A stretch of DNA of 64,000 nucleotides from Acholeplasmataceae bacterium (GTDB lineage: Bacteria; Bacillota_I; Bacilli_A; Acholeplasmatales; Acholeplasmataceae). The DNA lies in contig OY775910.1 of NCBI GenBank assembly GCA_963675245.1, positions 1,312,001 through 1,376,000 on the forward strand, given 5' to 3'. Positions 29,972 to 46,148 of this stretch are shown one piece after another (position 1 is the stretch's first letter; each line of letters begins with the position of its first letter). Below the pieces are notes generated by a model. It ran no database searches and had not been told where the DNA came from. It was given only the letters and a program-made list of their open reading frames with translations. The position numbers and the translations under genes are program-made.

Positions 29972-31291
29972 ATGAAATCAATGACATCAGGTAAACTTGC
30001 ATCACTTGCCGTTAGTGCAAGTCAAAAACCAGTACAACAAGCGTTAAAGCGTGTGCTTTATGCCAATGATATTCAGACGGCTATTCAAAAACAAGAACGC
30101 ATTCCAGCCAATCAGTTTGTGTTTTCAAATGAGATTAAAACATTACCGGTAGCAAACCAAAAAGCAAGCGGTCGTTGTTGGATCTTTGCAGGTCTAAATG
30201 TCCTGCGTGAATTAGTCGCAAATAAATATCAATTAACGTCCTTTGAATTCTCACAAAACTATACAGCTTTTTATGACAAACTCGAAAAAATTAATTACTT
30301 TATTGAATCCATTGATGATTTTTTAGAAGTTGATCAAGATGACAGAACCTTGCAACACATTTTAAAAAATGGTATTCAAGATGGTGGTCAATGGGATATG
30401 TTCGTAAGTCTTATAGAAAAATATGGGGTTGTTCCTAAAGCATATATGGAAGAGACGGTCTCATCTTCAAAAACAAGACCTATGAATCAGATCATTAATT
30501 TTAAGTTAAGACAATATGCTGCTAATGCGAGAAAGCTACATAAAGAAAGAAAATCATTAGACGTATTAAAAGAGAAAACACTCGATGAACTTTATACATT
30601 TTTAGTGACAGCATTTGGTGAACCACCAAGCGTCTTTGATTTCAATTATGTGAATAAAAATAATGAATATCAAGTGATTAAAAATTTAACACCTCAAAGC
30701 TTTTATAAAGAGGCAGTTGGTCTTGATTTAAATCATTACGTTTCCGTGATAAATGCACCAACAAACGATAAACCTTATATGCATTCATACACGGTTTCAT
30801 ATTTAGGTAATGTTGTTGGTGGTAAAGACATTAAATATTTAAATGTTGATATGAAACGATTAAAATCACTAGTCATTGCGCAATTAGATGCAAAAGAAGT
30901 GGTATGGTTTGGATCAGATGTTGGACGCTATGGTGATCGTACACTAGGTGTGTGGGATTCAGAGTATTATGATGATACATTACTCGGTATGGATATGAGT
31001 ATGAGTAAAGAAGATCAGTTAGATTATGCGCAAAGCTTAATGACACACGCGATGGTGATTACAGGTGTTCATTTAGATGACAATCAACCTGTTCGTTTTA
31101 AGATTCAAAATAGTTGGGGAGATACAACAGGCAATAAAGGTTACTATTTGGCATCTGATGCTTGGTTTGATCAATTTGTTTATCAAGCAGTCATTCATAA
31201 GAAATATTTATCTAAAGAAGAATTAATAGCATTTGAAGAAGAACCTAAGGTCTTAAAACCATGGGATCCAATGGGTGCTTTAGCCGACTAA
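29972..31291 (+). CDS. pepC: Aminopeptidase C (C1B, bleomycin hydrolase family)
   Basis: QKASGRCW, THAM, NSWG, PWDPMGAL. Confidence 0.95.
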   Translation: MKSMTSGKLASLAVSASQKPVQQALKRVLYANDIQTAIQKQERIPANQFVFSNEIKTLPVANQKASGRCWIFAGLNVLRELVANKYQLTSFEFSQNYTAFYDKLEKINYFIESIDDFLEVDQDDRTLQHILKNGIQDGGQWDMFVSLIEKYGVVPKAYMEETVSSSKTRPMNQIINFKLRQYAANARKLHKERKSLDVLKEKTLDELYTFLVTAFGEPPSVFDFNYVNKNNEYQVIKNLTPQSFYKEAVGLDLNHYVSVINAPTNDKPYMHSYTVSYLGNVVGGKDIKYLNVDMKRLKSLVIAQLDAKEVVWFGSDVGRYGDRTLGVWDSEYYDDTLLGMDMSMSKEDQLDYAQSLMTHAMVITGVHLDDNQPVRFKIQNSWGDTTGNKGYYLASDAWFDQFVYQAVIHKKYLSKEELIAFEEEPKVLKPWDPMGALAD

Positions 31292-31300
31292 AAAAAGTAG

Positions 31301-31330
31301 AGCCTAATCGTCGAATTAGGCTTTTCTTTT
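31301..31330 (+). terminator. Intrinsic terminator
   Basis: AGCCTAAT/ATTAGGCT plus T tract. Confidence 0.7.
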
Positions 31331-31364
31331 GTGTCAATGGCTGTTATAATAAGTTTGCCAAATA

Positions 31365-31441
31365 CGGGACGTGGCGCAGCTTGGTAGCGCACTTGCATGG
31401 GGTGCAAGGGGTCGCAAGTTCAAATCTTGTCGTCCCGACCA
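31365..31441 (+). tRNA. tRNA-Pro(GGG)
   Basis: Cloverleaf, anticodon arm CTTGC-ATGGGGT-GCAAG, encoded CCA. Confidence 0.95.
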
Positions 31442-31518
31442 TTAAAATCAAGAGACATAAGTCTCTTTTCTTTTTCTAGAGTCTTTAATCGTGCTAAAAT
31501 AAGGGAGAAGGAGATGAT

Positions 31519-32040
31519 ATGATGTCTTTATATGATTTTGAAATCAAACGCAATGATGGCGCATTAACATCGCTTAATGACTATAAGGGAAAAGTGTTGC
31601 TTATTGTTAATACAGCAACACACTGTGGATTCACACCACAATATGAAGGATTGGAACATCTTTATCAAACATATCATGATCAAGGTTTTGAAGTTTTAGA
31701 TTTTCCAAGTAACCAATTCGCAAAACAAGCACCTGAATCTGACGAAGAAATTAATACGATATGTGAACTTACTTATCATACGACATTTCCAAGATTTGCT
31801 AAAATCGATGTGAATGGTAAACATGAAGATCCATTATTTTCATATTTAAAAAAACATAGTCCAGTCGAACTAAATGCACAATTAAAAAAAGAGAAAAAAC
31901 TATCAAAGTTATTGTTTGGAGAACGCATCAAATGGAATTTTACGAAGTTTTTAGTCAATCAACAAGGTGATGTTGTAGCAAGGTTTTCACCTCAAGTGAA
32001 ACCTGAAATGATTGATGCTTATATTAAAGATTTATTTTAA
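31519..32040 (+). CDS. Glutathione peroxidase family (Cys type)
   Basis: NTATHCGFTPQY, FPSNQF, WNFTKFL. Confidence 0.93.
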   Translation: MMSLYDFEIKRNDGALTSLNDYKGKVLLIVNTATHCGFTPQYEGLEHLYQTYHDQGFEVLDFPSNQFAKQAPESDEEINTICELTYHTTFPRFAKIDVNGKHEDPLFSYLKKHSPVELNAQLKKEKKLSKLLFGERIKWNFTKFLVNQQGDVVARFSPQVKPEMIDAYIKDLF

Positions 32041-32147
32041 GTGATAAGATAAAATGTTAATGAGACATTTTATCTTACTTTTTTGAATGTTTCATCTTAT
32101 GTGCATAGACATTTTTGATGATAGATGATAGAATATTATCGCGTGTC

Positions 32148-32225
32148 GCACCCGTAGCTCAGTTGGATTAGAGTGCAGCCCTCCGAAGGCTGAGGTCGCA
32201 TGTTCAAATCATGTCGGGTGCACCA
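32148..32225 (+). tRNA. tRNA-Arg(CCG)
   Basis: Anticodon arm CAGCC-CTCCGAA-GGCTG, CCA end. Confidence 0.95.
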
Positions 32226-32230
32226 TAGCA

Positions 32231-32321
32231 GGAGGAATACTCAAGCGGTTGAAGAGGCGGGCTTGGAAAGCTCGTAGGTCGGTAACACGGCGCAGGGGTT
32301 CAAATCCCCTTTCCTCCGCCA
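32231..32321 (+). tRNA. tRNA-Ser(GGA)
   Basis: Long variable arm, anticodon loop TTGGAAA, CCA end. Confidence 0.95.
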
Positions 32322-32329
32322 TTATGTAA

Positions 32330-32384
32330 CTTAAACATAACCTTATAAAGTTATGTTTTTTTATTTATAATGACATGTTATAAT
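32330..32384 (+). repeat. Cassette left-end site A with extended -10
   Basis: CTTAAACATAACC-TTATAAA-GTTATGTTT, T tract, TGTTATAAT. Confidence 0.75.
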
Positions 32385-32424
32385 GATTTTATAAGAAAAA
32401 TTTATATGGTTGTAAGGGGGATAT

Positions 32425-33717
32425 ATGACATTAAAACAATTTAAGCATGACATGATTAGAGGACTTGGAACATGTATCATTGAATTGGAAAATTCTAATG
32501 ATATAAGTCAATATAAATCTATTGTTCTTTTTGGATGTCTAAATACAATCAGCTACGAACATCAAATAGAAGGAACAAGAAGTCGATATATGTATGAACT
32601 TATTAAATATTTCAATGATGATTCGTATTTTGAAAATTCAATAATTTGTAAGTTCAAGAAAAATCTAAAAAGCGTAACTTTGATAGTCACACTTATTGAA
32701 AGACTAGCTTATTTTGCAGGCAATGGAAGTGATAAGGCTAAACAAATACTATATGAAAAATATGAATACTTGATTCACAAGAATAATATTACACACGATA
32801 ATGGTATAGTTTTAGATTGGCTATGTGTTAATTTATTGCAAGTTTACGGATATAAATTTTTGAAATATCATATTGAAACAGTAAAACAAATGAAAAAATA
32901 TATAGAGGAAGATCATTTAGGGTGGTTTTATTATAGTGCTATTCAAAGATACAAAGAAAAGGCTGGAAGTTTGTTGAAATCTATTCACCCACACTATGAC
33001 AATAAACCAGAGTTTACATTTGAGCAGAATGATTTTTCTTTTCAAAATATATTTAATCATTTAATGGATGAAAATTTCTTTATTAGATTCAATGCATTCT
33101 CATTTAGAGCAGATGAACTAGAAATAAAGAAAGCTATTAATTTTTTAATTGAAGATGGCAATGTAATAAAGAAAAAAAGATTATTAAGACTCTTATCAAG
33201 GAAACCTATTGACCACAACATTGGAAAAATAATAGAAATGATTGGTAAATATCCTGATAATTTGGATAAAATAATTTTGGAATATTGCAGTAATATTCCT
33301 AATAATAATTTTGTTAAAAGATTAGGCTATAGTTTACTTGAAGAACGTTCTACTCGTTCTTTTGGTTTGCAAATGATTATAAATAGCTATAAGTCGTCAG
33401 ACAAAGAGAGTGTTATATACTATACTAAAAAACTTAAAATTGATTATGATGATATAGAATATTGGTATGATACATTTTCTGCGTTGCTTAATCTTATTTA
33501 TTCAAAGAAAAAAGATGTACCTATAGAATTACTACAATACATATTTAATGAAACACTGAATTCATACCAAAGAGAATATGTAATTGATATTATGAAAAGG
33601 AAAAAAATACAAAACATGAATATCTTATATATTGCTAAATATGATTCAGATTATGATGTTGTAAAAAAAGCTAAGAAGTTAATTGAAAGAATTAAAAGTG
33701 AATCATCTGGTAAGTAA
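32425..33717 (+). CDS. Hypothetical protein, 430 aa
   Basis: Long ORF with AAGGGGG RBS; no recognised motif. Confidence 0.75.
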   Translation: MTLKQFKHDMIRGLGTCIIELENSNDISQYKSIVLFGCLNTISYEHQIEGTRSRYMYELIKYFNDDSYFENSIICKFKKNLKSVTLIVTLIERLAYFAGNGSDKAKQILYEKYEYLIHKNNITHDNGIVLDWLCVNLLQVYGYKFLKYHIETVKQMKKYIEEDHLGWFYYSAIQRYKEKAGSLLKSIHPHYDNKPEFTFEQNDFSFQNIFNHLMDENFFIRFNAFSFRADELEIKKAINFLIEDGNVIKKKRLLRLLSRKPIDHNIGKIIEMIGKYPDNLDKIILEYCSNIPNNNFVKRLGYSLLEERSTRSFGLQMIINSYKSSDKESVIYYTKKLKIDYDDIEYWYDTFSALLNLIYSKKKDVPIELLQYIFNETLNSYQREYVIDIMKRKKIQNMNILYIAKYDSDYDVVKKAKKLIERIKSESSGK

Positions 33718-33728
33718 CTTATAAAACT

Positions 33729-33823
33729 ATGTAACATTTTTGTTTTATTGAATGGCCTTATAAAAGGAGAAATTGCTTAAACATCTCACAAAGGTTATGT
33801 TTAAGCAGACCTTTCCCCCGCCA
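33729..33823 (+). repeat. Cassette right-end site B plus tRNA-Ser 3' direct repeat
   Basis: AAGGTTATGTTTAAG (33791-33805) is the exact reverse complement of 32330-32344; 33810-33823 matches tRNA 32308-32321 at 13/14. Confidence 0.75.
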
Positions 33824-34027
33824 CCTGGAGGAAACCGGATTTGAATTAATATTAGTTTTTTATGATTTATAATTTATATAATATAGTTGATTTATTCTAT
33901 TAATGATGATAACTTCATAGCGTAAAATTTTCTTTGATGATGTTTAGTTTTATTTGACAAGAATTAGTATAAGTGATAGAATGCATACAATAGGATTTAA
34001 TAATAATCTATACAATAAGGGGGATTT

Positions 34028-35146
34028 ATGAAAAAAACAATTTTATTATTATCTTTTTTCTTTTTATGTTTAATGCTTACATAAAATGTATATGCTAGTG
34101 ATGTATATTTAGTTAACGATAATGGGATAAGTGTTTCTTATTTGGATTACGATATGTTCAAGTTATTCGGCTTATCAGATGATGAAATTAAAATTTTAGA
34201 CTTGGAAACATATAATAAATATGCCAATAGAAATATTATAGAGCAATCATATAATAGGATTAATATTGAAACAACTTATACTGTTGACAATGGTGAAATT
34301 GTCTCAAGGGTATACAAAAGAATGAATGAGATAGATTTTAAAGAAAAAGTACAAGTTCACAAAAATAAAATAAATAAAGATAAAAATTATGACAAAGATG
34401 ATATTATACTTTCGTCTGAGGTTAGTTCTTATTCGATTACTCCAATATTCGAAATTGAACCTCCTGGAGGCGGAGGCAGTAGTTCAAACATCGTGCGATC
34501 AATTTATGATTCAACTGATTATATGACATTTGATTCTTACAATATCTATTATTCAGACGCTGGAAGCAGTGGAGAAGTCTATATCAGAATTGAAATAGAT
34601 TGGGTTACAGAACCTAGTCAAAGATTTACTGATATATTAACAATTGGTTTTGAAGATGTCATGCTAAAAGAAGAATTTATTGGAGGACAATCTTATCCAG
34701 ATATTCATTCTTCGTTTACTTATGATCATGATTTGCATATAACTTATTTATATGGTCCACCTACAGTTACTTCATCATCATATAATATAACTTTTGATGG
34801 AAGTGATTATTCAGAATATATATATGATCATAATGATGAACATTATGTTGGTGTTGAATATGAATTACCAAAGGACCAATTTAGTGTTATTGGATATATA
34901 TATGATTCTAAATATTCAAATTTTCATATGCAACTGGAAATGAATTTCACAAGAACTAATTCTGATACAACTGGATTAACTTTTTCTGAATTTTATGCTC
35001 ATCAATCAGGTAGTGGATCAATAGATTGGGGGAAAATTTCCTTGACTTCAACTCCAGCGTTCATTAATTATGAAACTTCTCTTTTTGTAAATGATCCTAA
35101 TTTTGATGATGCAGTCGGTGGATTTGCAATTTTTCAGAATATTTGA
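34028..35146 (+). pseudogene. Secreted protein gene with in-frame TAA in the signal peptide
   Basis: RBS and ATG 34028, MKKTILLLSFFFLCLMLT*NVYASD, in frame with ORF 34142-35146. Confidence 0.75.
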
Positions 35147-35161
35147 TAGCGGGTGCTAAAA

Positions 35162-35353
35162 ATGAGTAAAAGAAATATAAAATTAATCTTTATAACTTCT
35201 TCCATGTTATCATTTATCGCTATGATAACATTAACAATAGTAGCGCTTATCGATTGGCAAGCAGTCGATATTGTTTCTGGTCTGTTTGTTCATGTAACTA
35301 TAGTAGCTATATTTATTGTAAGCACAATTGGTTATATAATTATTGATAGATGA
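35162..35353 (+). CDS. Small two-TM membrane protein
   Basis: Two hydrophobic helices; follows the secreted-protein gene. Confidence 0.6.
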   Translation: MSKRNIKLIFITSSMLSFIAMITLTIVALIDWQAVDIVSGLFVHVTIVAIFIVSTIGYIIIDR

Positions 35354-35412
35354 TATAAATTGTGATTAATGCTATAGAATATTATTGTGAAGATTAAGTG
35401 AATTTCAATCAT

Positions 35413-35446
35413 AGTGCATCAACTTCTAAGTTGGTGCATTTTTTTT
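35413..35446 (+). terminator. Intrinsic terminator
   Basis: AGTGCATCAACT/AGTTGGTGCATT plus T tract. Confidence 0.7.
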
Positions 35447-35570
35447 GGATATTTTTTTGCATCATATAGGACATTGTAGTTAGTGTTTAGTAGAAAATTA
35501 TGTTTGATAGCAAATGATACCGATGAAAAAATACTAATAAAACAGAGGGGATTATTACATTTTTCCATGC

Positions 35571-35653
35571 AAAAAAAGCAACTCAGCCCGAAAAAAAGCA
35601 AAACTCCGTCGAACACGAACGATTTTAGAGTAAAACTCCGTAATGACAAGACA
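35571..35653 (-). repeat. Transposon-end-like repeat, copy 1
   Basis: Reads TGTCTTGTCATT... on the minus strand, with internal AAAACTCCGT repeats; 28 bp identical to copy 2. Confidence 0.65.
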
Positions 35654-35964
35654 CGATTATTATAGAAATCGCAAAAAAATTGCTTTTAACAGCTTAATAT
35701 AGCCATTAATAGCGTTTATATTTGCGATTTTTTTGTTAAATGATTATGAGTTTTTGATTATAATACATGGTTCCTTAAGAGATAATCTGCAAATAAAATA
35801 ATTCACTTTGTAAGTTACTACTTAAATTTAAATATTTAGAGATTGATATAGGATAACATAATTTAGAGTGAATTGACTTGGATTATGTATTATGCTATAA
35901 TCAACTCAATTGATAGAGAACTATTGAATCATATTCTCTAAATACGTTAAGGGGGAAACAAACA

Positions 35965-37185
35965 ATGAAATCCATAAAGCGCAGCATTTTGTTATTTGTT
36001 CTATTTTTTGGTCTTTTTGTTAGTGTATTTGCAATTAGTACTACGCCAGTTCAGGCAGAATCTAATGTGGTAAATTCGACAGAAGTAATTGTATCATATG
36101 AAGATGTATTTCAATCTTATTACGATACAGTAATCTTAGAGGCTAAATTAGCATTTAAAGATACAAATCTATCCTTTGAAGAGTTTTGTGATAAGTATTA
36201 TTATTTTGATATGGATATAAAAACATATACTGAAGCAGTTATAGATGCTTATGTATATGGTGAATATTCTGATATTCCAATTGCTAAATCATCTTCATCA
36301 TCATCTTCAGAAACAGCCGATTATATTTTAGATAATGGTATATTTGAACGTGAACCAATTTACAATTATTTTGATTACTCTGTAATTGAAATTGGGGATA
36401 TTATTTATGAAACGGATACTATATTTTTTGATTCTGGTCATATAGCGATGATAACAGATTATGCCTATGATAGTACATATGGATCCTACTATCGTACTGT
36501 AGAAGCAGTTGAACCAACTGTGTCAAATGGTTTTTTAGATGATACAAGAATGATTGATTATAGAGTTAAAATATTAAGAGTTGTTGGTGCAAGCACAGCA
36601 CAAATTAATGTAGTTAGATATTTTATGAATTATCAGATTGGTAAATCATATAGTTTAAATCCAATAAGGTTAAATACAAACATAAATTCTAGTGAGTGGT
36701 ATTGCTCTGAACTTGTATATGCAGCTTATAAATATGCTAATATTGATATTGGTGTTAAAAAGAACAGTAGTGGTAATGATGTGTATTTAGTATTAGGGTG
36801 TTTACCAGTTGATATTTACAACAGTTATAATACAAGTGAAGTTACAATACCAAGTTTTTTCCTTGAAATGGAGAATATGGGAAAATCAGGCAGTTATTGG
36901 TTAATCAAAATTACAAATTTATCAAGCTCGTATATTAGCTTTCAATATAACAGTAAAATGTGTTTTGCAAATGATGCCGAAAATTGGAGCGGACTAAACG
37001 ACTTAGTTACGAGATCTTTATATCCGAATACTTCTGTAACTGTAAGTATTCGCGAAAATTGGTTTGCTACAACAGTTGTAGCCGGTTGGCTTGATAGTGA
37101 AGACATGAGATTTATTACTTATGGCAACCAGCTTACCACTAGTGGAGGTATCGTTGTTACGAATGTTAAGAAAGATGAGAGTTAA
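35965..37185 (+). CDS. Secreted permuted NlpC/P60 (YiiX/YebB-like) papain-fold protein
   Basis: Signal peptide (VQA), GDII...GHIAM before WYCSELVYAAY (His before Cys). Confidence 0.72.
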   Translation: MKSIKRSILLFVLFFGLFVSVFAISTTPVQAESNVVNSTEVIVSYEDVFQSYYDTVILEAKLAFKDTNLSFEEFCDKYYYFDMDIKTYTEAVIDAYVYGEYSDIPIAKSSSSSSSETADYILDNGIFEREPIYNYFDYSVIEIGDIIYETDTIFFDSGHIAMITDYAYDSTYGSYYRTVEAVEPTVSNGFLDDTRMIDYRVKILRVVGASTAQINVVRYFMNYQIGKSYSLNPIRLNTNINSSEWYCSELVYAAYKYANIDIGVKKNSSGNDVYLVLGCLPVDIYNSYNTSEVTIPSFFLEMENMGKSGSYWLIKITNLSSSYISFQYNSKMCFANDAENWSGLNDLVTRSLYPNTSVTVSIRENWFATTVVAGWLDSEDMRFITYGNQLTTSGGIVVTNVKKDES

Positions 37186-37197
37186 AATGTCTCTTCT

Positions 37198-37983
37198 ATG
37201 TTTCTGGTGGTCATTGTGAAAGCACATAAATATCTAATATTTTCATTAAGTAGTTTTTTAATTACATCAATCTATTTATCACTTATATATGTTTTGGGTA
37301 CATTAAATTCATATTATGGAACATCATTTCCATTGTGGATATTTTTCGGTTTATCAGCATTTGAGATTATTGTATATTTAGCAATCAACAATAAAAAATG
37401 GTTATTGTTGAGCATTATTACAATTTTAAAAGGAACTAGTTATACATTAGTTATGTCTGTGTTTTTGTTTAGAGGAAGCAGTGTACTAGGTACACCTGAA
37501 CTGATATTTTTAATCATTGGTATACTATTAGTGTTGATTACAGTTTATATAGAATATTTTGGTATATCTCGGAAACTAAATTCTCGTTCTAATGAAATTA
37601 TTAGATCAGGTATATTCAAACAGAAAAGATTGTTGATTTTACATATTGTTTATTTAATCATTATCATGCTATCTATTATCAATGATAGTTTTACTTTTGA
37701 AGGTTTTGTCTTATCAGGTGGAATTTTTATTGGAGCTTTATTTATCAGCATAACTTTGACTCAGTATATTATTTCAAAAAACAAAGGGAAAAAATCATCA
37801 TTAACTATATTGACTATACTAAAATTTTTAACAATATTATTTGTTATGATCGGATTAATGATGTATGTCAATATTTCATTTTATCATCCATATACTGCTA
37901 TAGTTAACTTGTTATTACATTTGGTAGCTTTAGTGAATTTTAGTTTCGAAATGTACCTATTAAATCATCAACCACTAACATAA
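37198..37983 (+). CDS. Polytopic membrane protein
   Basis: About 8 hydrophobic segments; 12 bp after the preceding gene. Confidence 0.7.
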   Translation: MFLVVIVKAHKYLIFSLSSFLITSIYLSLIYVLGTLNSYYGTSFPLWIFFGLSAFEIIVYLAINNKKWLLLSIITILKGTSYTLVMSVFLFRGSSVLGTPELIFLIIGILLVLITVYIEYFGISRKLNSRSNEIIRSGIFKQKRLLILHIVYLIIIMLSIINDSFTFEGFVLSGGIFIGALFISITLTQYIISKNKGKKSSLTILTILKFLTILFVMIGLMMYVNISFYHPYTAIVNLLLHLVALVNFSFEMYLLNHQPLT

Positions 37984-38031
37984 ATATAGAATCAATAAAA
38001 TAATTTTGTATAGTTCAAAGAGCAAGATACT

Positions 38032-38105
38032 AAAAAAAAGCAAGTCCATCAGAAAAAAAGTAAAACTCCGTTGGAAATAGAGTAAAACTCCGTAATGACA
38101 AGACA
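38032..38105 (-). repeat. Transposon-end-like repeat, copy 2
   Basis: TAGAGTAAAACTCCGTAATGACAAGACA (38078-38105) identical to 35626-35653. Confidence 0.65.
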
Positions 38106-38409
38106 TTAAACGAGCATTGGTCTGATACGATAAGTATTGGACCTTTTTATTTTGAAGATAGAGGATTTTCCCCTATTTTCAAAATATAGATAGTCAAGTA
38201 TAAGTCAAAAATCTAACTATTTCTTCACATTCATTTAATTCTACATTTAATGGGTCACACAATTACTTAACAAGCTACACGATAGCCTAACCTTTTACAC
38301 GGTTATAACAAGTATACTTTTTGAGACTATATAGTGTATAATTATGATAATGATTGTTCAGTATGAAACCGTTACACGCATCAGTTTAAATAATTATGGG
38401 GAGGAGCCA

Positions 38410-39075
38410 ATGAGACGATTCAAATACCCATTTTCAAAGCACATTGACAAAAAGTTGCTTAGAAAAAGAATTGATTTACTAGATAATTCAGCACGAGAAA
38501 GATATATTGCCAATAGACGGTTTCGCCTAATTTTTGGAACCCTATTTTGGATTTTGTTCGTTTTTTTTCTGGGTATTATGATTGTTCTTGAGCAAAATAT
38601 AAAACCAGTGATTGGAAAGACCTTATATACGATTTTGGTTATTTTCGTCAGCTTAATTTTACCGGCATTGTTATTATTATTTCCATATCGAAAACTCGAG
38701 AAAAATTATCCACCTCAGTCTTTAGAAACATTTCCAAAAGATATTATTGCTATCATTAATATAAAGCTATTGAAATACTATAAAATTCCGGAAAACTATA
38801 TTGTTACCAAATGTTATGATTCTTCAAATCAGCTTCTTGTTGATAAGGATGTGTTGCTTTTTTTTCACATAGACAAATTAAGGATGGTTAATGATTTTAC
38901 ATCGACAATTAAGGACTTCGGTTGTTTTGAATTTGGACTGGATGAGATTAAAGTGTCTTATGGAAAAAAAGAGGATATCGTTACAACTGAGATAAATGCA
39001 GAGAAGTTTTATATTTCATTAGGAAAAAGAGCAAAATCATTTATTTCAAGTAGAGGAAGAAATGAGAATGTTTAG
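38410..39075 (+). CDS. Hypothetical two-TM protein
   Basis: GAGGAG RBS before ATG 38410; two TM helices. Confidence 0.7.
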   Translation: MRRFKYPFSKHIDKKLLRKRIDLLDNSARERYIANRRFRLIFGTLFWILFVFFLGIMIVLEQNIKPVIGKTLYTILVIFVSLILPALLLLFPYRKLEKNYPPQSLETFPKDIIAIINIKLLKYYKIPENYIVTKCYDSSNQLLVDKDVLLFFHIDKLRMVNDFTSTIKDFGCFEFGLDEIKVSYGKKEDIVTTEINAEKFYISLGKRAKSFISSRGRNENV

Positions 39076-39475
39076 GCTTTTTAAGAAAAAGAACAATGAA
39101 GAAGAACTTGCAAAAGCTCGAGAAAACCATAGAACACATTTTAGAGAAAGGCTACAGGTTAACAAAGATAAAAACACAACTTTTGAAGCGATGTACATTT
39201 TATTTAATGCTCTGGATATTGAAATTGTTGAATTAATAAAAAGGTACAACCTCTATATTGATTTTGATTTTGTTGATGAAGATCAATATTATGAGGTAAT
39301 GGTACAAAACATTAATGGTGGGAAAAAAGGTATGTATACTACTGTTGGTACAGAACAAGGTAAGAATATAATGACTCTTGATAGTATAGGAGATACGATA
39401 TCGACAGATGGATTATCTTCAGAAGATATTATGTCTAGAGTGATTGATGAAATAAAAACTTTTCACGGGAAATAA
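39062..39475 (+). CDS. Hypothetical protein
   Basis: ORF overlapping the upstream stop, AGAGG RBS. Confidence 0.65.
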   Translation: MRMFRLFKKKNNEEELAKARENHRTHFRERLQVNKDKNTTFEAMYILFNALDIEIVELIKRYNLYIDFDFVDEDQYYEVMVQNINGGKKGMYTTVGTEQGKNIMTLDSIGDTISTDGLSSEDIMSRVIDEIKTFHGK

Positions 39476-39500
39476 ATACCCATAGGAGGATACCTACAAC

Positions 39501-40226
39501 ATGATTTGGATTGATAAGAAAGCGTTTAAAGAAACCTAATCAATACTTAAGCAGAAAACTAGTATGAAGCCTATCTTCGCTGATCTAAAACGATTTATTG
39601 AAAATATGTATTCGATTATTGTTCTTAACATAGTTTATGAGAAAATTAAATTCAAATCCAATAAGAATTCATATATATATGGAAAGAAGTATAGGTTGAT
39701 CTGCTATGTATCCTCTTATACCGAAAGAGAAAAGATGCAGAATAGAGTTGATGTTCAATTAGATAACTTTCCAAATGCGCATAAAATGGTTAATGATAAA
39801 GATATACAGAATACAATTTTAGATGAATTTTTTCAATTGTCAAAGAAATACAATTTTAAAATAAATGTTAGGAAGGAAGACATTTGGGTTGATTATTTCT
39901 ATTGGTTTTCTACACAATACATGAGTCTTATTGTAAGTAAAGTACAAAAGAAACTAATAGAAGATGTGCTTTCCAAATACAAAATTAAAGCAAATATATG
40001 GGGTATACATACAGGAACTTTTGGCATTGTTATATTCTATGATACAGATTCCAGTAAACTTATTAGCCAGCAAAATGGTATTTCAGAAGAGATTAAAAAC
40101 GAGATTTATTTAGGAGTAAAGCAACTAGATGAATTTAATTTTTATAAAGAAGAGTACATAAGTTTTGACTCAAAAGAAAATCTAGATAAAAATTATCAAG
40201 GAAGTCTATATTACTATTTTAAATAG
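39501..40226 (+). pseudogene. Hypothetical gene with early in-frame TAA
   Basis: GGAGGA RBS, ATG 39501, MIWIDKKAFKET*SILKQKTS in frame with ORF 39564-40226. Confidence 0.65.
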
Positions 40227-40235
40227 TAAAATTCG

Positions 40236-40330
40236 CTATTTTGATACAAGAAATTACTACATGAAAACCACAAAAAATAAAATGACTAAGTTAAGCCATA
40301 ATTTAGGGGTGCTAATTTGTATCAAAATAG
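40236..40330. repeat. 95-bp element with perfect 14-bp inverted ends (MITE/IS remnant-like)
   Basis: CTATTTTGATACAA ... TTGTATCAAAATAG. Confidence 0.5.
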
Positions 40331-40351
40331 GTAATGCAACCCATACTGTCT

Positions 40352-40408
40352 CTTAAACATAACCTCAAAAAGTTATGTTTTTTTTTGTATATTTTATTAT
40401 GATATAAT
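40352..40408 (+). repeat. Cassette left-end site C with extended -10
   Basis: CTTAAACATAACCTCAAAAGTTATGTTT, T tract, TGATATAAT; homologous to site A. Confidence 0.75.
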
Positions 40409-40463
40409 AGAAATAAAGAATAACGATTAAAACTTTAATAGAATGCTTTGGGGGGGTATACTC

Positions 40464-40853
40464 ATGTCAATAATATTTAAGGATTATAATGAGATGAAGA
40501 AGCATAATACTGTTTTTATAGAAATTCAATATTGTAAACTTAGAGCTTCCAAAAGTATAAAAAAGAAAGTTGCTGTGAGAAATATGAAGTATCGTTTGTT
40601 AGATTCACTTTATATTCATAGTTCAGATATTGAGAAATTTTACGATGAATATGGAGAAATATTTGTTGATGGTACATACAATAATCAAAAGACTGGATTT
40701 ATTGATCCGTATGGAATTAACTATTTCCAGAAAAATCAAATAAATGATTTTATTAATCATATGTTGGAATCCAAACCTACTGATTACAAAATTATGATTG
40801 AATGGTTGAAACAAGCATTAGAATTTAATGGATTCTATATTCTGGGAATCTAA
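40464..40853 (+). CDS. Hypothetical protein
   Basis: G-rich RBS before ATG 40464. Confidence 0.7.
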   Translation: MSIIFKDYNEMKKHNTVFIEIQYCKLRASKSIKKKVAVRNMKYRLLDSLYIHSSDIEKFYDEYGEIFVDGTYNNQKTGFIDPYGINYFQKNQINDFINHMLESKPTDYKIMIEWLKQALEFNGFYILGI

Positions 40854-40946
40854 CTCAAAACTTCAAATTGTTATCATGAATGGTTCATCGAAATCCTTTG
40901 ATTGTTATGATTATTTCTGTTTGACAATACGGAGGTATATGTAAAA

Positions 40947-41258
40947 ATGACATATGAAGAATTTATTAAAGGAATAAATAATCGAACTAGAATCAAACAA
41001 ATAAACTTTTATATAAAGAATTATCACCATTATAAAAATTGTAGTATTGGTAGATATATAGATAACGTTAAAACAGTACAAAAAAAAATTAATGGAAGGA
41101 TAACCTGTATTCTAACTGAAGATCATTCAGAAGATGTATCTTTTTACGGTGATTTTAGTGAAAATTATAAATTGTTTGATTTAGGTTCAAAAGGAAAATA
41201 TACATTGAAAGACATTTGGAACAATATCGTAATTACCAAAATTGAATTCTTTAAATAG
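40947..41258 (+). CDS. Hypothetical protein
   Basis: GGAGGT RBS. Confidence 0.65.
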   Translation: MTYEEFIKGINNRTRIKQINFYIKNYHHYKNCSIGRYIDNVKTVQKKINGRITCILTEDHSEDVSFYGDFSENYKLFDLGSKGKYTLKDIWNNIVITKIEFFK

Positions 41259-41356
41259 TTAATTAGATGTTCTTTAAATTTCAATTTGCTGTTTTTAATT
41301 ATTTTTAGCTCATTAGAAAAAGATTATGTTAAATTAATCAGATTATATTTTCAATC

Positions 41357-41456
41357 ATGTAACATTTTTTGTTTCATGAATTGCCTTACAAAGGGGTAAA
41401 GTATCTAAATACCTCTCAAAGGTTATGTTTTTTTTATTAAATGAACATGATATAAT
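41357..41456 (+). repeat. Site D: right-end homolog fused to a left-end promoter segment
   Basis: 41357-41430 matches 33729-33802 at 58/74 ungapped (hand count), then resembles the segment after site A. Confidence 0.72.
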
Positions 41457-41484
41457 GAAGAAAATGATCTATAGGAGTACCATC

Positions 41485-41574
41485 TTGATTAATATTATAT
41501 ATGATGTTGATGTTACAAAATTAAAATATTTACTTCCAAAACAATATGATAATTTGAAAATATACTATTCATAG
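41485..41574 (+). pseudogene. Possible truncated cassette gene (29 codons)
   Basis: TGATATAAT, AGGAG RBS, TTG start, early TAG. Confidence 0.35.
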
Positions 41575-41631
41575 TATGTCATGTAAAATCCTTACTATAA
41601 GGACAAATATGACAAGATGGGATGGAGAAAA

Positions 41632-41832
41632 ATGAAAGATTTGATACTGTACATGGTAAATGAAGTCAAAGACATTCTGAAAATAACGCAGCGAACGCTG
41701 TACAATTACATTAAGAGTGGTGACTTAAAAGCCGTAAAAATCGGCAAATATTGGCGAGTAAAAAAATCCGACTTGGAAGAATTTATTGAATTTGGTACCA
41801 ACAAATCACACGACATTAACTCTTCAAAATAG
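41632..41832 (+). CDS. Excisionase-like (MerR-fold HTH_17) DNA-binding protein
   Basis: LY.V.EVKDILKITQRTLYNYIKSGDLKAVKIGKYWRV. Confidence 0.85.
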   Translation: MKDLILYMVNEVKDILKITQRTLYNYIKSGDLKAVKIGKYWRVKKSDLEEFIEFGTNKSHDINSSK

Positions 41833-41869
41833 AGTTTATTCGTCGCAAGGAATACAACAACAATATATT

Positions 41870-41894
41870 AAAACGCTCAAACGAGCGTTTTTTT
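41870..41894 (+). terminator. Intrinsic terminator
   Basis: AAACGCTC/GAGCGTTT plus T tract. Confidence 0.7.
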
Positions 41895-42213
41895 ATGTCT
41901 GAACTAATTCATGCTGCGAAAGAAACGGATATGATTAATGATAAAAGAATCAAAGAAAATCAAAAACATAATAAAAATAATCAACTTTAATTCGCTCAAT
42001 ACAACATTGTTAATGTGTATTTAATAAAAATAACCTATAAAATTTTGACATACTATCATGACAAGATGTATTGTCTTAGAAAATTTGAAATATGTTACAT
42101 TTTTTATGTGTTAAAAAGATATTGTTTACATCCGAATTACAATATAATTATGATTGAATATTATATGATTAGCGCTTATAATGAGGGTGATTAGAAAAGG
42201 CAAGGTGATGGAT

Positions 42214-43443
42214 ATGAATAAAAGAGAAATTGTAGATGGTATATATAGTTTTTCAATGAACATTGACAACATTATATTTGAAAATATGTGGGAACTACCT
42301 CATGGTGTATCGATGAATTCATACATTGTTAAAGGTAATGATGTGGCTATTATTGATGGTGTCATAGGTTGGGATGGTGTGCCTGAAACACTTTACAAAA
42401 ATTTAAAAGATTTTGATATTGAACTTGAAGACATTAAATATCTTGTTGTTAACCACGTTGAGATGGATCACACTGGATGGTTGACTAACTTCAAAAAAAT
42501 GAGTAAAGATTTTACCGTTGTCGCAACCAAAAAAGGAGAAGACATAATCAAATCATTTTATGGCGATGACATGAACATCTTAGTGGTCAAAGATGGAGAC
42601 ACATTAGATCTTGGTCATGGTAAGATATTAGCATTTTATGAAATTCCAAATGTACATTGGCCTGAGACGATGATGACTTATGAAATCAGTTCAAAAGCAT
42701 TATTTCCATGTGATTTATATGGTATTTTTGGGACAGTTAAAGGTCATCTTTATGATGATGAATTAACGGATGATGAAAAGAAGATATATGCTGAAGAAGG
42801 CTTAAGGTATTATACCAATGTTATGATGACCTATACACCAAGAGTTAAAAAGGCGATTGAAAAAACAAGGGCATTAGATATTAAGTTAATTCTTCCTGGT
42901 CATGGTATCTTGTATCGTGGTAATCCAGATCAAATCGTAGATGATTATGAACGATGGGGTGCTTATACAAATGGCCAAGGTGAGAATGAAGTCACGATTA
43001 TTTGGGGGTCAATGTATGGATCAACTGAAAAAATGGTCAATTATACGAAAGGACTACTAGAAAAAGAAGGCATTAAAGTAAAGATGGTCCAAATGCCTTA
43101 TGACACACAAAGTAATGTTTTAACAAAATCACTTAGTTCTGCAGCGATAATAATCGCTGCACCTACCTATGAATATAAAATGTTTCCACCTGTAGCTCAT
43201 GCACTTGATGAACTTGGTAGAAAAAGAATGATTGGAAAGAAGACGCTTTATTTTGGATCAGCTGGATGGATTGGTGGTGCAAAAAAGGATTTTGAATCTA
43301 TTCTTGAGACATCACGTATGAAATGGGATATTGTGGATGCTTTAGAGTTTATTGGTACAGCGGATGAAGATGCTTATCAAATGATCAATCATGCAGTTAA
43401 GAAATTAATTGAATCAATGAAGGAAAATATTTATCAAAGATAA
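42214..43443 (+). CDS. fprA: Flavodiiron protein (FprA/A-type flavoprotein)
   Basis: HVEMDH, HWPE, PGHG, flavodoxin SMYGST; start could be 42181-42214. Confidence 0.92.
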   Translation: MNKREIVDGIYSFSMNIDNIIFENMWELPHGVSMNSYIVKGNDVAIIDGVIGWDGVPETLYKNLKDFDIELEDIKYLVVNHVEMDHTGWLTNFKKMSKDFTVVATKKGEDIIKSFYGDDMNILVVKDGDTLDLGHGKILAFYEIPNVHWPETMMTYEISSKALFPCDLYGIFGTVKGHLYDDELTDDEKKIYAEEGLRYYTNVMMTYTPRVKKAIEKTRALDIKLILPGHGILYRGNPDQIVDDYERWGAYTNGQGENEVTIIWGSMYGSTEKMVNYTKGLLEKEGIKVKMVQMPYDTQSNVLTKSLSSAAIIIAAPTYEYKMFPPVAHALDELGRKRMIGKKTLYFGSAGWIGGAKKDFESILETSRMKWDIVDALEFIGTADEDAYQMINHAVKKLIESMKENIYQR

Positions 43444-43769
43444 TCTATTATTTATTTTTGCAACAACTATTAGAGATGTTAGTCAATAGCTAGCATCTTT
43501 TTTGATAAATAAAGAATTATTAACATTATTCATGCATAAGTGTGTGATTTATTGGGATTTAAAGCAAATTGATAAACGTACAATAGTTGTAGTAGTAAGA
43601 TAAAGACAAAGAAAGAAATTACTAACTTTTATCAATGAGGTGACTAACTATTAAAAGTCAAGTACTTTTAGTAGATAAACTGTAAAAACCTCCAATAGCC
43701 ATAATTTTTAGAGGTTAGCCATATAACTGGATGATTTTATGACTTAACCGCCACAGTTTAAGTAATCAA

Positions 43770-44930
43770 TTATTGTAGTTTAGAGGAATCAAAATCTTCC
43801 TGATGTGTTTCGAGATGATGAATGACTCTAATGAGTTTTTTTGAAAGATGAACCAGTGCGACACGATGATGTTTACCCTCTTGTTTCTTCTTGGTGTAGT
43901 AGTCGTAGAAGACGGGGTTATAGATCATAACCATCATTGAGATATTGATGAGTGTTGCTCTTAGGTACTTGCTGCCACGTTTAACCAGTTTACCTGTTGA
44001 AGACATGGTGCCAGACTGTCTGATGGTTGAATCCAGACCTGCATAGGATAACATTTCAGCGGGATTGGAGAAAAGTGAAATATCACCATATTCTGAAACG
44101 ATGACAGCTGCTGAAATGATTCCGATACCTTTAATGGTTTGAATCTTAGTTGGATATCGATGCATTAAAGAAATGATCTGTTTCTCAGTTTCTTCGATAT
44201 CTTGATTGAGTTTCTCAACATAAGAAATTGAAGTCTTAAGTTTGAATAGTTGATGATCTTGTGTCACACCAATGGTTGATTTTGCGAGTTCCTTCAGTTT
44301 AACAAACTTCGGATAATTGAATTTACCCATCGATCGTTTACGAAGCTTATCGAAGTGGTCATCAGTCATCCTTGCTATTTTATCCGGTGATGAAAAGCGC
44401 TTCAAGATGTATAAAGATGTATCACTATAGCCTTGTTCTTGCATAAAAGGTTTGAATTCAGGAAAGATGACATCTAAGACCTTGGTCATCATATTGTAGT
44501 GTTTCGTCCGAATTGAGATGAGTTTAAAACGTAACCTGGTCAGTGATTTTAAAGCACTTATATGATAAGATTGATGATGATAGGCTTTGTAGTCTACAGA
44601 TCTCATATAAGTTGAAATCATTTGTGCATCTTTCTTATCCGTCTTTGTTTTTCTCAGTGAATGGGCTTCTCCAAACTTCTTCACGAGAAAAGGATTAATC
44701 TCCATGAATGAATATCCATGGAGGATAAGAAATGACTTAAGGTTTTCTCCATAATGACCTGTGGCCTCTAAGCCTATTATCATTTCTTGCTTGACTAAAG
44801 AGTTAAAGTATCCTAATAGTTCTTTAAACCCAGACTGACTGTTCTCAAATGAGAACTGATGGCTAACTGTTTCGGTGGCGATGAAACAGTCATGCTTGTA
44901 CTTTGAAATATCGATGCCGATATAGATCAT
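43770..44930 (-). CDS. IS110 recombinase/transposase
   Basis: GIDISK, LEATGHY, KTDKKDA (DEDD RuvC), GIG, YAGL...QSG, KRG. Confidence 0.96.
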   Translation of the reverse strand: MIYIGIDISKYKHDCFIATETVSHQFSFENSQSGFKELLGYFNSLVKQEMIIGLEATGHYGENLKSFLILHGYSFMEINPFLVKKFGEAHSLRKTKTDKKDAQMISTYMRSVDYKAYHHQSYHISALKSLTRLRFKLISIRTKHYNMMTKVLDVIFPEFKPFMQEQGYSDTSLYILKRFSSPDKIARMTDDHFDKLRKRSMGKFNYPKFVKLKELAKSTIGVTQDHQLFKLKTSISYVEKLNQDIEETEKQIISLMHRYPTKIQTIKGIGIISAAVIVSEYGDISLFSNPAEMLSYAGLDSTIRQSGTMSSTGKLVKRGSKYLRATLINISMMVMIYNPVFYDYYTKKKQEGKHHRVALVHLSKKLIRVIHHLETHQEDFDSSKLQ

Positions 44931-44944
44931 AAGTACACCTCCAA

Positions 44945-45175
44945 GAATTAAATTTGTACGTGTGGTAAGTCCAGCAGCGTCTTTATCTCATAATCATGTA
45001 AAAAGCGTCTTCCGCTAACTAACTATTGCTGATTAAAATAAAGACCGTGGTAAGCGTCACCTCAAAATAGTCTAGGTTATAAAAATATGACACAGATCCA
45101 CAGTACATTATTAGTATATTAAATTAGAACGAAAGGAGTAAAGATTTAAAGACTTAAGTAACTAACTTAATACAC
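44945..45175 (-). ncRNA. Predicted IS110 bridge RNA (ends approximate)
   Basis: Nested stems with internal loops whose segments match the donor junction and target flanks. Confidence 0.8.
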
Positions 45176-45195
45176 TTTAAATCTTACATGACTGT

Positions 45196-45525
45196 ATGAA
45201 AAATAAAATCATCATATTATTACTCCTGGTTTCATTTTTTGTTGGTGCTGTTCAATTATTATCTAATCGATCAGTTTCGACTGATGCAAACTCAGGTGCT
45301 ACACAACACGCTATTTCATCAAACATTGATGGCACGACAAGTCCAACAATCATTAATGAAGGTGCATTTTTTGATGGTCTTGCAGGTGTAACGATGATAT
45401 CTGAACTAGATGCCTTAAGTGGTGCATCAACATCTAGAGATGAATATGACGACGATGATGATGAACATGAAGATGAGTATGAACATGAAGATGAACACGA
45501 AGATGAATCGGAGTATGATGACTAA
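45196..45525 (+). CDS. Small exported peptide with flavinylation-like motifs and an acidic/His tail
   Basis: Signal anchor, DANSGAT and DALSGAS, D/E/H-rich C-terminus; RBS displaced by the IS. Confidence 0.65.
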   Translation: MKNKIIILLLLVSFFVGAVQLLSNRSVSTDANSGATQHAISSNIDGTTSPTIINEGAFFDGLAGVTMISELDALSGASTSRDEYDDDDDEHEDEYEHEDEHEDESEYDD

Positions 45526-46148
45526 TGTTGACTATTTTATTAACAGCATTATTATTTGCAGTTTCCGGATATTTTTTCAGTAAGCAAATTAGAGTAAGTG
45601 CAATCTTTTGGTATATAGTTGCTAGCCTTATAGCGATATTTGTAGATCCTCATTCTGCAAATATATTTAGTCTTGGTTACGTCGCATTTGGTATTTTATT
45701 GTTAGTGATGTTTATGGGTGTATTTGATAAAGGAAAATTTAGAAATCAATTATTAGGAGTTAGAGGAGAATATGCCATCATTGGCACGATTTTATTGTTT
45801 CCACATGCGTGGGGTTATTTTGAATTTTATGGACTTGAAAACAATTTTTTTCAAAACAATCTATCCTTCTATATAGGTATAATTGCTTTAATCACTATGT
45901 TACCTTTAACATTAACCTCATTTAGAATTGTAAAAAGTAAAATGAAATATAAGAAATGGAAGAAATTACATCAACTATCTTATTTATTTTACGCACTGAT
46001 TGCTACACATATAATCTTACTTGACAATCAAAGATTTTGGCTTTATGTCATGATATTTGGAGTTTATACGATTATGAAGGTGATTATGCTACTTCAACCG
46101 AATAAAGCTAAACAACAGCAAAAACACAAAGCTATCCAACACAATTAA
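45525..46148 (+). CDS. MsrQ-like ferric reductase transmembrane protein
   Basis: RGEYAI...H, PLTLTS, WKKLHQLSY...H. Confidence 0.8.
   Translation: MLTILLTALLFAVSGYFFSKQIRVSAIFWYIVASLIAIFVDPHSANIFSLGYVAFGILLLVMFMGVFDKGKFRNQLLGVRGEYAIIGTILLFPHAWGYFEFYGLENNFFQNNLSFYIGIIALITMLPLTLTSFRIVKSKMKYKKWKKLHQLSYLFYALIATHIILLDNQRFWLYVMIFGVYTIMKVIMLLQPNKAKQQQKHKAIQHN

Follow-up and report, generated by a model that had tools for sequence, protein, structure and literature searches.

The 64,000-nucleotide stretch analysed here (the window; G000:C1:1312001-1376000) comes from an Acholeplasmataceae bacterium (G000, the source genome, one contig of 1.63 Mb) and raises the question of why the same short end sequences recur around unrelated genes behind a single tRNA gene, tRNA-Ser(GGA). 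An initial annotation of the window had described a left end that occurs twice (A and C) and a right end that occurs twice (B and D), and had read them as the bounds of two cassettes in a tRNA-anchored, integron-like array. The recurrence of the ends is confirmed, and the array is larger than had been noted: the island at 32322-42180 is made of six co-oriented cassettes of 0.75-2.5 kb each, with three right-end families, three of the cassettes lying between those already described (33824-40343). The reading as a cassette array is supported, and we favour, with fair confidence, its origin by tandem accretion, in which small integrative cassettes mobilised in trans would have been added in turn at the tRNA-Ser(GGA) 3' end; part of this mechanism we infer.

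The cassettes behind tRNA-Ser(GGA)

In a repeat search, A and C (32319-32369 and 40341-40391) are identical at 43/51 positions (84% over 51 nt), while B and D (33729-33802 and 41357-41430) are identical at 58/74 (78% over 74 nt), the same ungapped figure as had been counted by hand. When the region 31000-46000 was shuffled 20 times with dinucleotides preserved and the best ungapped match scored, the best 51-mers gave 32-36 matches and the best 74-mers 43-48; 0/20 shuffles attained the observed 43 and 58. A and C share the layout first described, namely CCA, 11 nt, a hairpin of the form AAACATAACC-N6/7-GTTATGTTT, a T-run of 7-9 and a promoter box (Table 1). The hairpin has 9 bp (-7.1 kcal/mol, z -2.4 and -2.8), and the right half of A also resembles that of D (32347-32386 and 41419-41458, 80% over 40 nt). 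The motifs are not scattered over the genome, both pairs being found at this one locus: the exact A/C hairpin pattern occurs genome-wide twice on the forward strand and never on the reverse, both times here (reversed control 0), and no further copies of B or D were found elsewhere in the 1.63 Mb. As annotated, A-B contains one open reading frame (ORF) and C-D two different ones (40443-40853, 136 aa; 40947-41258, 103 aa), all on the + strand. The G+C content of the island is 25-30% as against 31-36% in the flanks, and a conserved flavodiiron core gene, kept in relatives, begins right after the array at 42181.

The region was compared with 30 relatives, and the stretch behind tRNA-Ser was taken from six genomes of the same genus. 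Between species, island content is not invariant and differs in 7/7 genomes of the genus (G000 and the six); behind an identical tRNA end the first unit opens with the left end named L-c in G000, with another hairpin in G001, L-a in G002, L-b in G006 and G007, an L-b variant in G003 and something else in G008. The clearest comparison is with G002. Right end B continues into CCTTTCCCCCGCCA, a 13/14 copy of the tRNA-Ser 3' end CCTTTCCTCCGCCA (32308-32321), and in G002 the tRNA-Ser CCA runs directly into L-a, i.e. into the sequence that follows 33823 in G000. The BLAST matches of G002 to the tRNA and to 33810-35653 overlap by just this 14-nt core, so that exactly 32322-33809 is missing in G002, which therefore has the exact empty site of cassette 1. 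Cassette 1 thus behaves as a 1488-nt insertion between 14-nt direct repeats. For cassettes of the L-c/B type, site-specific integration is shown by this copy of the tRNA end together with the empty site, whichever enzyme carried it out.

Cassettes have been exchanged between species, as is shown by identities of 86-91% compared with 70-79% for the adjacent core gene pepC. Cassette 2 (aligned over 33810-35653) is 91% identical to G002:903669-905535, the first unit behind tRNA-Ser there. For the head of cassette 5 (40331-40860) the identity is 87% to G001:482815-483342 and 86% to G006:811096-811611, in both of which it is preceded by an R end and not by a Q end. The last 22 nt of R, a right end of cassettes 2 and 3, occur in 20 copies in five genomes of the genus (reversed control 0) and are identical in 17/20 of them, from 5 species with about 72% identity in their core genes.

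Table 1 Positions in the window of the tRNA anchor, the six cassettes and their ends.
Feature	Position	Strand	Description
tRNA-Arg(CCG)	32148-32225		ARAGORN, Rfam
tRNA-Ser(GGA), array anchor	32231-32321	+	Last bases ...CCTTTCCTCCGCCA stop at the first joint; ARAGORN, Rfam
Cassette 1 (A to B)	32322-33823	+	Left end, 430-aa ORF (32425-33717), right end B closing in the tRNA 3' copy; missing from G002
Cassette 1 left end, type L-c (A)	32322-32384	+	11-nt linker, hairpin 32333-32358, T-run, TGTTATAAT 32376-32384
Cassette 1 right end, type B	33729-33823	+	Conserved arm 33729-33775, degenerate hairpin 33772-33805, AAGCAGA, tRNA copy 33810-33823
Cassette 2	33824-35653	+	Left end L-a 33824-33845, broken secreted-protein gene, 66-aa ORF, right end R1; 91% identity to G002
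Cassette 2 right end R1	35564-35653	+	G(C/T)AAAACTCCGT repeats, finishing AATGACAAGACA
Cassette 3	35654-38105	+	Degenerate L-b, 406-aa secreted C92-like ORF, 261-aa membrane ORF, right end R2 38032-38105
Cassette 4	38106-40343	+	L-d with its strong terminator hairpin at 38119-38143; 243-, 137- and 220-aa ORFs; right end Q
Cassette 4 right end Q	40293-40343	+	GGGGTGCTAA ... AATAGGTAATGCAACCCA
Cassette 5 (C to D)	40344-about 41430	+	L-c (hairpin 40355-40380, TGATATAAT 40400-40408), 136- and 103-aa ORFs, B-type arm and hairpin 41357-41430
Cassette 6, right limit uncertain	about 41431-42180	+	L-c right half fused to D, TGATATAAT 41448-41456, helix-turn-helix (HTH) ORF, terminator 41870-41891

The main gene of cassette 2 (34028-35146) has an in-frame TAA (34082-34084) after the signal peptide MKKTILLLSFFFLCLMLT that stands for a Ser codon of the 388-aa G002 homologue, the remainder being 93% identical in the same frame (tblastn); such a broken gene fits a cassette that may be decaying and immobile. 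Searches of Pfam, NCBIfam and PADLOC with the cargo gave a weak C92 amidase match for the 406-aa ORF and otherwise sub-threshold matches; for the 430-aa ORF there is a weak HEAT-repeat lead from a protein atlas. The 136-aa protein, modelled with AlphaFold, has a predicted local distance difference test (pLDDT) score of 39.7. The sole ORF of cassette 6 (41617-41832) encodes a 71-aa HTH_17/excisionase-type protein, which scores 38.8 bits against the excisionase domain model (cut-off 28.8). Among MADS MAD1 models it matches those of NCBIfam (34.8 bits against a cut-off of 80) and of PADLOC. Two possible decayed ends were seen by eye before the core gene, at 42057-42069 (TCATGACAAGATG, 10/13 to the R terminus) and at 42098-42118 (ATGTTACATTTTTTATGTGTT, resembling the start of the B arm). 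An Rfam scan found nothing beyond four tRNAs. Just beyond the array, at 43770-44930 on the minus strand, is a transposase of the IS110 family that seems unrelated to it; IS110 was rejected as driver of the array, there being four identical copies in G000 and none in G002 or G006.

End families and the joints between them

Each joint sits exactly after a terminal ...CA, such that the tRNA or a right end closing in CA is followed by a left end. Four families of left ends were distinguished. L-a (CCTGGAGGAAACCGGATTTGAA) is an inverted copy of the T-arm and acceptor of tRNA-Ser, L-b begins (G/C)G(T/A)TGATTATACCAAG... and continues with TTTAACGGCTTAATA, L-c (A and C) is the linker, hairpin with T-run and TGnTATAAT described above, and L-d is a 12-nt linker and a strong terminator (GGTCTGATAC...GTATCAGACC, -13.4 kcal/mol). 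The right ends are made of direct repeats and not of attC-type palindromes, R folding no better than shuffled sequence (z +0.52) and B only at z -2.1, in agreement with the initial annotation, which had found no attC consensus. The R and Q ends have an ACAAnnCA terminus in common, and the last 13 nt are common to all three R variants (R, R' and R''). Where L-a is joined to tRNA-Ser, in G002, the dyad TTTCCTCC-GCCACCT-GGAGGAAA is formed, which resembles a symmetric recombinase site; L-a is also found after R ends in G002, G003 and G007.

The ends are found around unrelated cargo. There are eight distinct L-c heads (six in islands, one in G133 and one in G240), of which 7/8 begin exactly 11 nt past a CA end (tRNA, Q, R or R'); all eight carry TGnTATAAT after the hairpin, a predicted promoter by its match to the consensus, and together they precede four unrelated first genes (430 aa, 129-136 aa, 143 aa and 282 aa) in four species. 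Order-wide BLAST with the 74-nt A sequence gave matches in 150/307 genomes, nearly all of them short AT-rich chance matches, and the hairpin pattern upheld those in G002, G001 and G240 only. Full B-type ends are present twice in G000, twice in G001 and in G006 and G133, and the 3' 32 nt also in G180 and G056, six further weak matches being left aside; in G000, G001, G006 and G133 they stand after at least five unrelated genes (430-aa, 103-aa and 223-aa ORFs, an ASCH protein and others). With the G002 empty site, these counts bear out the earlier suggestion of a family of promoter-carrying cassettes that accumulates at this tRNA.

Across genomes L-a, L-b, L-c and L-d are found interchangeably after tRNA-CCA, B-CCA, R-ACA and Q-CCA, and the list of junctions contains each right-end family joined to each left-end family, as would be expected if a joint consists of one cassette's end and the next one's start. 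Inside cassettes, by contrast with the joints, the ends pair: L-c with B (twice in G000, once in G001), L-b with R (CP076020.1) and L-d with Q (the tRNA-Gly arrays of G000, G008, G009 and G083). These properties bear on whether anything mobile is needed at all. A and C could be ordinary terminator-promoter modules, and B and D ordinary 3'-untranslated-region modules, spread by duplication and homologous recombination; A, C and L-d are indeed terminator-like hairpins with T-runs, conserved ends of 50-100 nt could provide homology for recombination after DNA uptake, and no recombinase is present. We nevertheless regard this explanation as improbable, given that the joints are base-exact in many genomes and freely combined, that the 14-nt direct repeat flanking cassette 1 is too short for homologous recombination, that the R terminus is conserved far beyond the core genes, as noted above, and that a recombinase-bearing member, described below, shows the same boundaries.

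The position of the crossover can be considered in the same light. D is probably a B end without its tRNA-like tail and the next linker, lost through deletion between two copies of GGTTATGTTT; the predicted product of such a deletion, between its own hairpin and the following L-c hairpin, is exactly B-left, hairpin, T-run and promoter, as seen. The four sites of the window could also be accommodated by a crossover inside the hairpin AAACATAACC/GGTTATGTTT. The hairpin would then be the core site of a tyrosine recombinase (arms of 9-10 bp, spacer of 6-7 nt), with A and C as attL and B as attR, while D would be the internal, attP-like junction between two elements in tandem. Such arm and spacer geometry suits tyrosine-recombinase core sites, the right arm AA(A/G)GTTATGTTT is common to all four sites, and D is exactly B-left, hairpin and the right side of L-c. 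At the G002 empty site, however, no hairpin lies between tRNA-CCA and L-a, and this hairpin is also missing from the left ends (L-e and L-d) of the B-type cassettes in G001 and G006. B is, moreover, conserved in one piece, tRNA copy and all, in G001, G006 and G133, and its 3' part is found in G180 and G056 too; a crossover within the hairpin is accordingly hard to credit. B was also considered as a tRNA-like minihelix, its minimum-free-energy structure pairing a GGAGAAA-like 5' stretch with the tRNA-like 3' end; this was rejected, the pairing being lost in G001 and G133 (by eye).

Search for the recombinase

No tyrosine or serine recombinase (including PF00589) was found in the window, and searches of the ORFs of 32322-42180 against Pfam, NCBIfam and PADLOC gave no recombinase and only the excisionase-type HTH. 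The absence of an integrase stated in the initial annotation holds for these two classes, while the IS110 transposase and the excisionase-type HTH ORF are present. In the islands of the six relatives, 0/108 ORFs belong to either class and two encode IS3-type transposases. A tyrosine recombinase is absent from all nine tRNA-Ser(GGA) islands examined, and neither class was found among 71 and 52 ORFs from other arrays bar one exception, in CP076020.1. G000 has no match to the serine-recombinase family PF00239, and its six tyrosine recombinases, XerC, XerD and four small Xer-like proteins, are all far from the window and score 33-158 bits against the integron-integrase model TIGR02249 (cut-off 265). 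No primase or helicase module was seen in domain scans of the window, the relatives' islands and other arrays.

The small Xer-like proteins invite an integron-like explanation, in which one of them, a host tyrosine recombinase encoded elsewhere in the chromosome, would serve as capture platform for three arrays, behind tRNA-Ser, tRNA-Gly and tRNA-Phe. Four such proteins besides XerC and XerD, and three separate recombinase-less arrays, are what G000 has; the 14-bp tRNA copy of B is a classical tyrosine-integrase signature, and the repeated 10-22-nt motifs in R, Q and L-b resemble arm sites. We still consider such a platform unlikely. The nine tRNA-Ser(GGA) islands lack a tyrosine recombinase, the R and Q ends have no core in common with the tRNAs that precede them, and the four proteins are encoded elsewhere (at a restriction-modification (R-M) locus, in an element beside tRNA-Gln and as a tandem pair), the low-scoring tandem pair having no intact counterpart in four other genomes of the genus that were searched.

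Transposition would be a different source of the ends. Every right end closes in CA, R' has two contiguous 22-bp repeats of the kind carried by Tn7-type ends, the left ends have a subterminal hairpin 9-13 nt past the joint, as IS608 left ends likewise do, and some R ends adjoin broken genes. The right ends might then be 3'-CA termini of DDE-type (Tn7/Mu-like) or single-strand (IS200/IS605-like) transposons, and the arrays one-ended remnants, an explanation to which we give very little credence. R ends are found on a single strand only, with no inverted copy in seven islands (up to 3 mismatches) or in the genome (1 mismatch), the Y1 transposase family PF01797 has 0 matches in G000, G006 and G008, though all three have arrays, and no rve, TnsB-like or other transposase recurs in arrays. 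Transposition also leaves unexplained that tRNA-CCA replaces the right end at the head of each array.

The exception among the arrays points to another class of enzyme. In CP076020.1 the unit directly behind tRNA-Cys consists of CCA, L-b, a gene for a 538-aa large serine recombinase, which is the only serine recombinase in that genome, three small ORFs and an R end. A metagenome contig (L208) has a recombinase 97% identical to it in a unit that is likewise R-ended and carries different cargo; the homology between the two begins exactly at the CA joint, and the left neighbour in L208 is a ...GTGACAAGACA end and not a tRNA. Remnants of the recombinase adjoin R joints in four more contexts (L094, L210, L280 and L257). 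A recombinase accompanying the ends is thus found in R-ended units of two other records, and none for the family bounded by A and B. The CP076020.1 protein scores 84, 74 and 60 bits against the CcrB, CcrC and CcrA models (cut-offs 700-900). The reconstructed R/L-b site reads GTAATGACAAGA[CA]GGTTGATTATAC. In the L-b region of CP076020.1 (L079:11990-12120) the first R repeat recurs in inverted orientation (ACGGAGTTGCTTTTT), and TTAGAGTAAAA recurs in direct orientation, so that the two arms of the reconstructed site have motifs in common, as arm-type sites would.

Accretion, as we picture it, would have proceeded by site-specific recombination into the tRNA-Ser(GGA) 3' end: cassettes without their own recombinase would have entered successively, and every new arrival would have displaced the older ones away from the tRNA. 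The hairpin of the left end would stop incoming transcription, and in most cases a predicted extended -10 promoter of the cassette's own would come next. L-c and B would be matching left and right families, with the last 14 tRNA bases in B serving as shared core, and cassettes 2-4 would come from sister families, whose right ends are R and Q; D would have lost its tRNA core through the deletion between its own hairpin and the next L-c hairpin. We infer that cassettes are excised as circles and that a recombinase acting in trans, which would come from outside G000, re-inserts them at the CA joint nearest the tRNA. For the R family this recombinase is probably a large serine recombinase that cuts at the CA dinucleotide; for L-c/B the enzyme may be of that kind too, or else a tyrosine integrase that uses the 14-bp core. 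In G000 itself the array is most likely frozen.

Several observations weigh against this proposal. No L-c/B cassette has a recombinase linked to it, and the link to a serine recombinase consists of two closely related elements and the remnants near R joints. Among 43 true R-family loci, many of them short, a tblastn match to the CP076020.1 recombinase was found at 1. Homologues of this recombinase are present in 54/307 genomes of the order (E<=1e-40), and at 30 loci inspected, with up to 62% identity, no L-b/R was found within about 1.5 kb. The dyad of the R/L-b site around CA is weak (6/12 positions, estimated to be not beyond chance). The direct repeats of R, Q and L-b, spaced by 20-32 nt, look like arm-type or accessory sites, for which serine recombinases have no known requirement. 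Certain R ends lie against gene fragments, such as the 3' part of a cadA, and this is more easily reconciled with a transposon-like end, or with deletions next to an end, than with a strict attB. No circular or excised form was observed. Five sequencing runs were available, all in the form of contigs, and three of them, from one sample, contain the whole stretch; the contigs break at the R repeats and at IS110, and the joints listed from them are those of a 113-kb contig carrying other R copies and so have no bearing on excision. Other serine recombinases were rejected as drivers: those of G002, G003 and G006 are 26-38% identical with no R or L-b nearby, and tandem pairs about 10 kb from the Q arrays of G083 and G227 lie in phage-like or integrative and conjugative element (ICE)-like contexts, unlinked to the cassette head.

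Known systems and other arrays

The array is closest to three known kinds of island. The first is the accretion of cis-mobilisable elements (CIMEs), which the initial annotation had named as the nearest precedent; tandem accretion of CIMEs, ICEs and integrative and mobilisable elements (IMEs) at tRNA genes or other 3' gene ends is reportedly described in a Streptococcus review. The likeness is in recombinase-less units with att-type bounds, in one orientation, at a conserved gene 3' end and presumably mobilised in trans. It holds for the lack of recombination and transfer genes in the units and for the att-type repeats that bound cassette 1 (CCTTTCCTCCGCCA/CCTTTCCCCCGCCA, with the G002 empty site), but not for the bounds of the R- and Q-ended cassettes. 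The units are also far smaller (0.75-2.5 kb) and mostly have a standard terminator-promoter head, several end families are mixed in one array, and G000 has no helper element.

The second is the composite staphylococcal cassette chromosome (SCC) and pseudo-SCC islands at staphylococcal rlmH, which are moved by Ccr large serine recombinases. Tandem cassettes stand there, as here, behind one conserved gene, many without a recombinase, with a large serine recombinase in complete members. The arrays described here differ in their target, which is a tRNA 3' end (tRNA-Ser(GGA), tRNA-Gly(TCC), tRNA-Cys or tRNA-Leu) and not rlmH, in the lack of a Ccr orthologue, in cassettes ten-fold smaller and in conserved right ends of 50-100 nt with internal repeats.

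The third is the tycheposon islands of Prochlorococcus, for which the same 'pushing' model at tRNA genes is given, along with remnants and partial tRNAs left behind and integrases that are tyrosine or large serine recombinases (bioRxiv 10.1101/2020.12.28.424599). Tycheposons have their own integrase and usually replication genes, unlike nearly all units of the arrays, and most joints of the arrays bear R or Q ends and not partial tRNAs. Among the 108 ORFs of the six relatives' islands there is, as stated above, neither a tyrosine nor a serine recombinase.

Integrons and clusters of attC sites lacking integron-integrases (CALINs) are resembled in the look of the array, to which extent the initial reading as integron-like stands: the cassettes are co-oriented, mostly with one or two genes of unknown or accessory function and with little or no recombinase, and ends like recombination sites recur around unrelated cargo. 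The parts are different, however, there being no IntI, no attC-type hairpin ends and no promoterless cassettes, and the anchor is a tRNA 3' end and not attI. The Y1 HUH transposase of IS200/IS605 or REP/RAYT systems and the inverted TG...CA ends with repeated transposase sites of Tn7/Mu-type elements were not found either in the searches given above. The array stands apart from CIMEs, SCC islands and tycheposons alike in its tiny units, standard terminator-promoter head, interchangeable end families and near-total lack of recombinase genes, and no published description of such an array was found in the open-access text searched.

Similar arrays occur more widely. A scan of public genomes with a 16-mer of R gave at least 128 loci, including many chance matches, with true family members at 43 among the matches listed; true R-family arrays include CP017948.1 (14 copies) and CP076020.1. 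Q ends are present in 65/307 genomes of the order, with arrays behind tRNA-Gly(TCC) in G000, G008 and G083 and behind tRNA-Leu in G227. The R and L-b junction had no match in plasmid and phage records. Cargo in relatives' arrays includes restriction systems, Fic and immunity-like proteins, exporters and metal resistance.

In G000 the second array (G000:C1:1089545-1093433) lies behind tRNA-Gly(TCC). Each unit opens with the L-d hairpin, and its end consists of GGGGTGTAA(A/T) boxes, two or three in number and spaced by about 21 nt, and of AATAGGTCA(T/C)ACAACCCA; the first unit also has three T(A/T)CACGAT boxes, 20 nt apart, and one cassette encodes a protein with a Cass2 (integron-associated effector-binding) domain. 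The unit next to the tRNA has the same left end as a unit after a Q end deeper in the G008 array, in keeping with insertion at the joint nearest the tRNA. The third array, behind tRNA-Phe (G000:C1:772658-778400), contains nine copies of an anticodon-loop core (772685-778370), several of which continue with the tRNA 3' half, a terminator hairpin and a promoter. A further region of G000 (G000:C1:1597732-1602473) contains cadC-cadA, GGGGTGCTAAA/TTTACACGAT repeats, an R end, a short fragment and an R' end, the last abutting a truncated gene, namely the last 40 codons of a second cadA. This 4.7-kb region is 98.6-100% identical between G000 and CP017948.1, which shows that transfer between distant lineages was recent.

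These observations lead us to propose, tentatively and as a less than even prospect, that wall-less Bacillota (Acholeplasma-/Izemoplasma-like) have a gene-capture system that is integron-like in its working and built of other parts: tRNA 3'-CA landing sites and promoter-bearing cassettes of 0.5-3 kb with family-specific right ends of 50-100 nt (B, R, R' and Q), which would be stacked and redistributed between species, and even orders, by a rarely retained large serine recombinase or a recombinase acting in trans. A compact serine recombinase that targets a tRNA end is indicated by one of the families. The end pairs L-c/B, L-b/R and L-d/Q are short, conserved and searchable, so that the flexible gene pool of these lineages could be mapped with their help. 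If the proposal is true, small-genome wall-less bacteria without classical integrons would own a modular way to gather and swap single genes.

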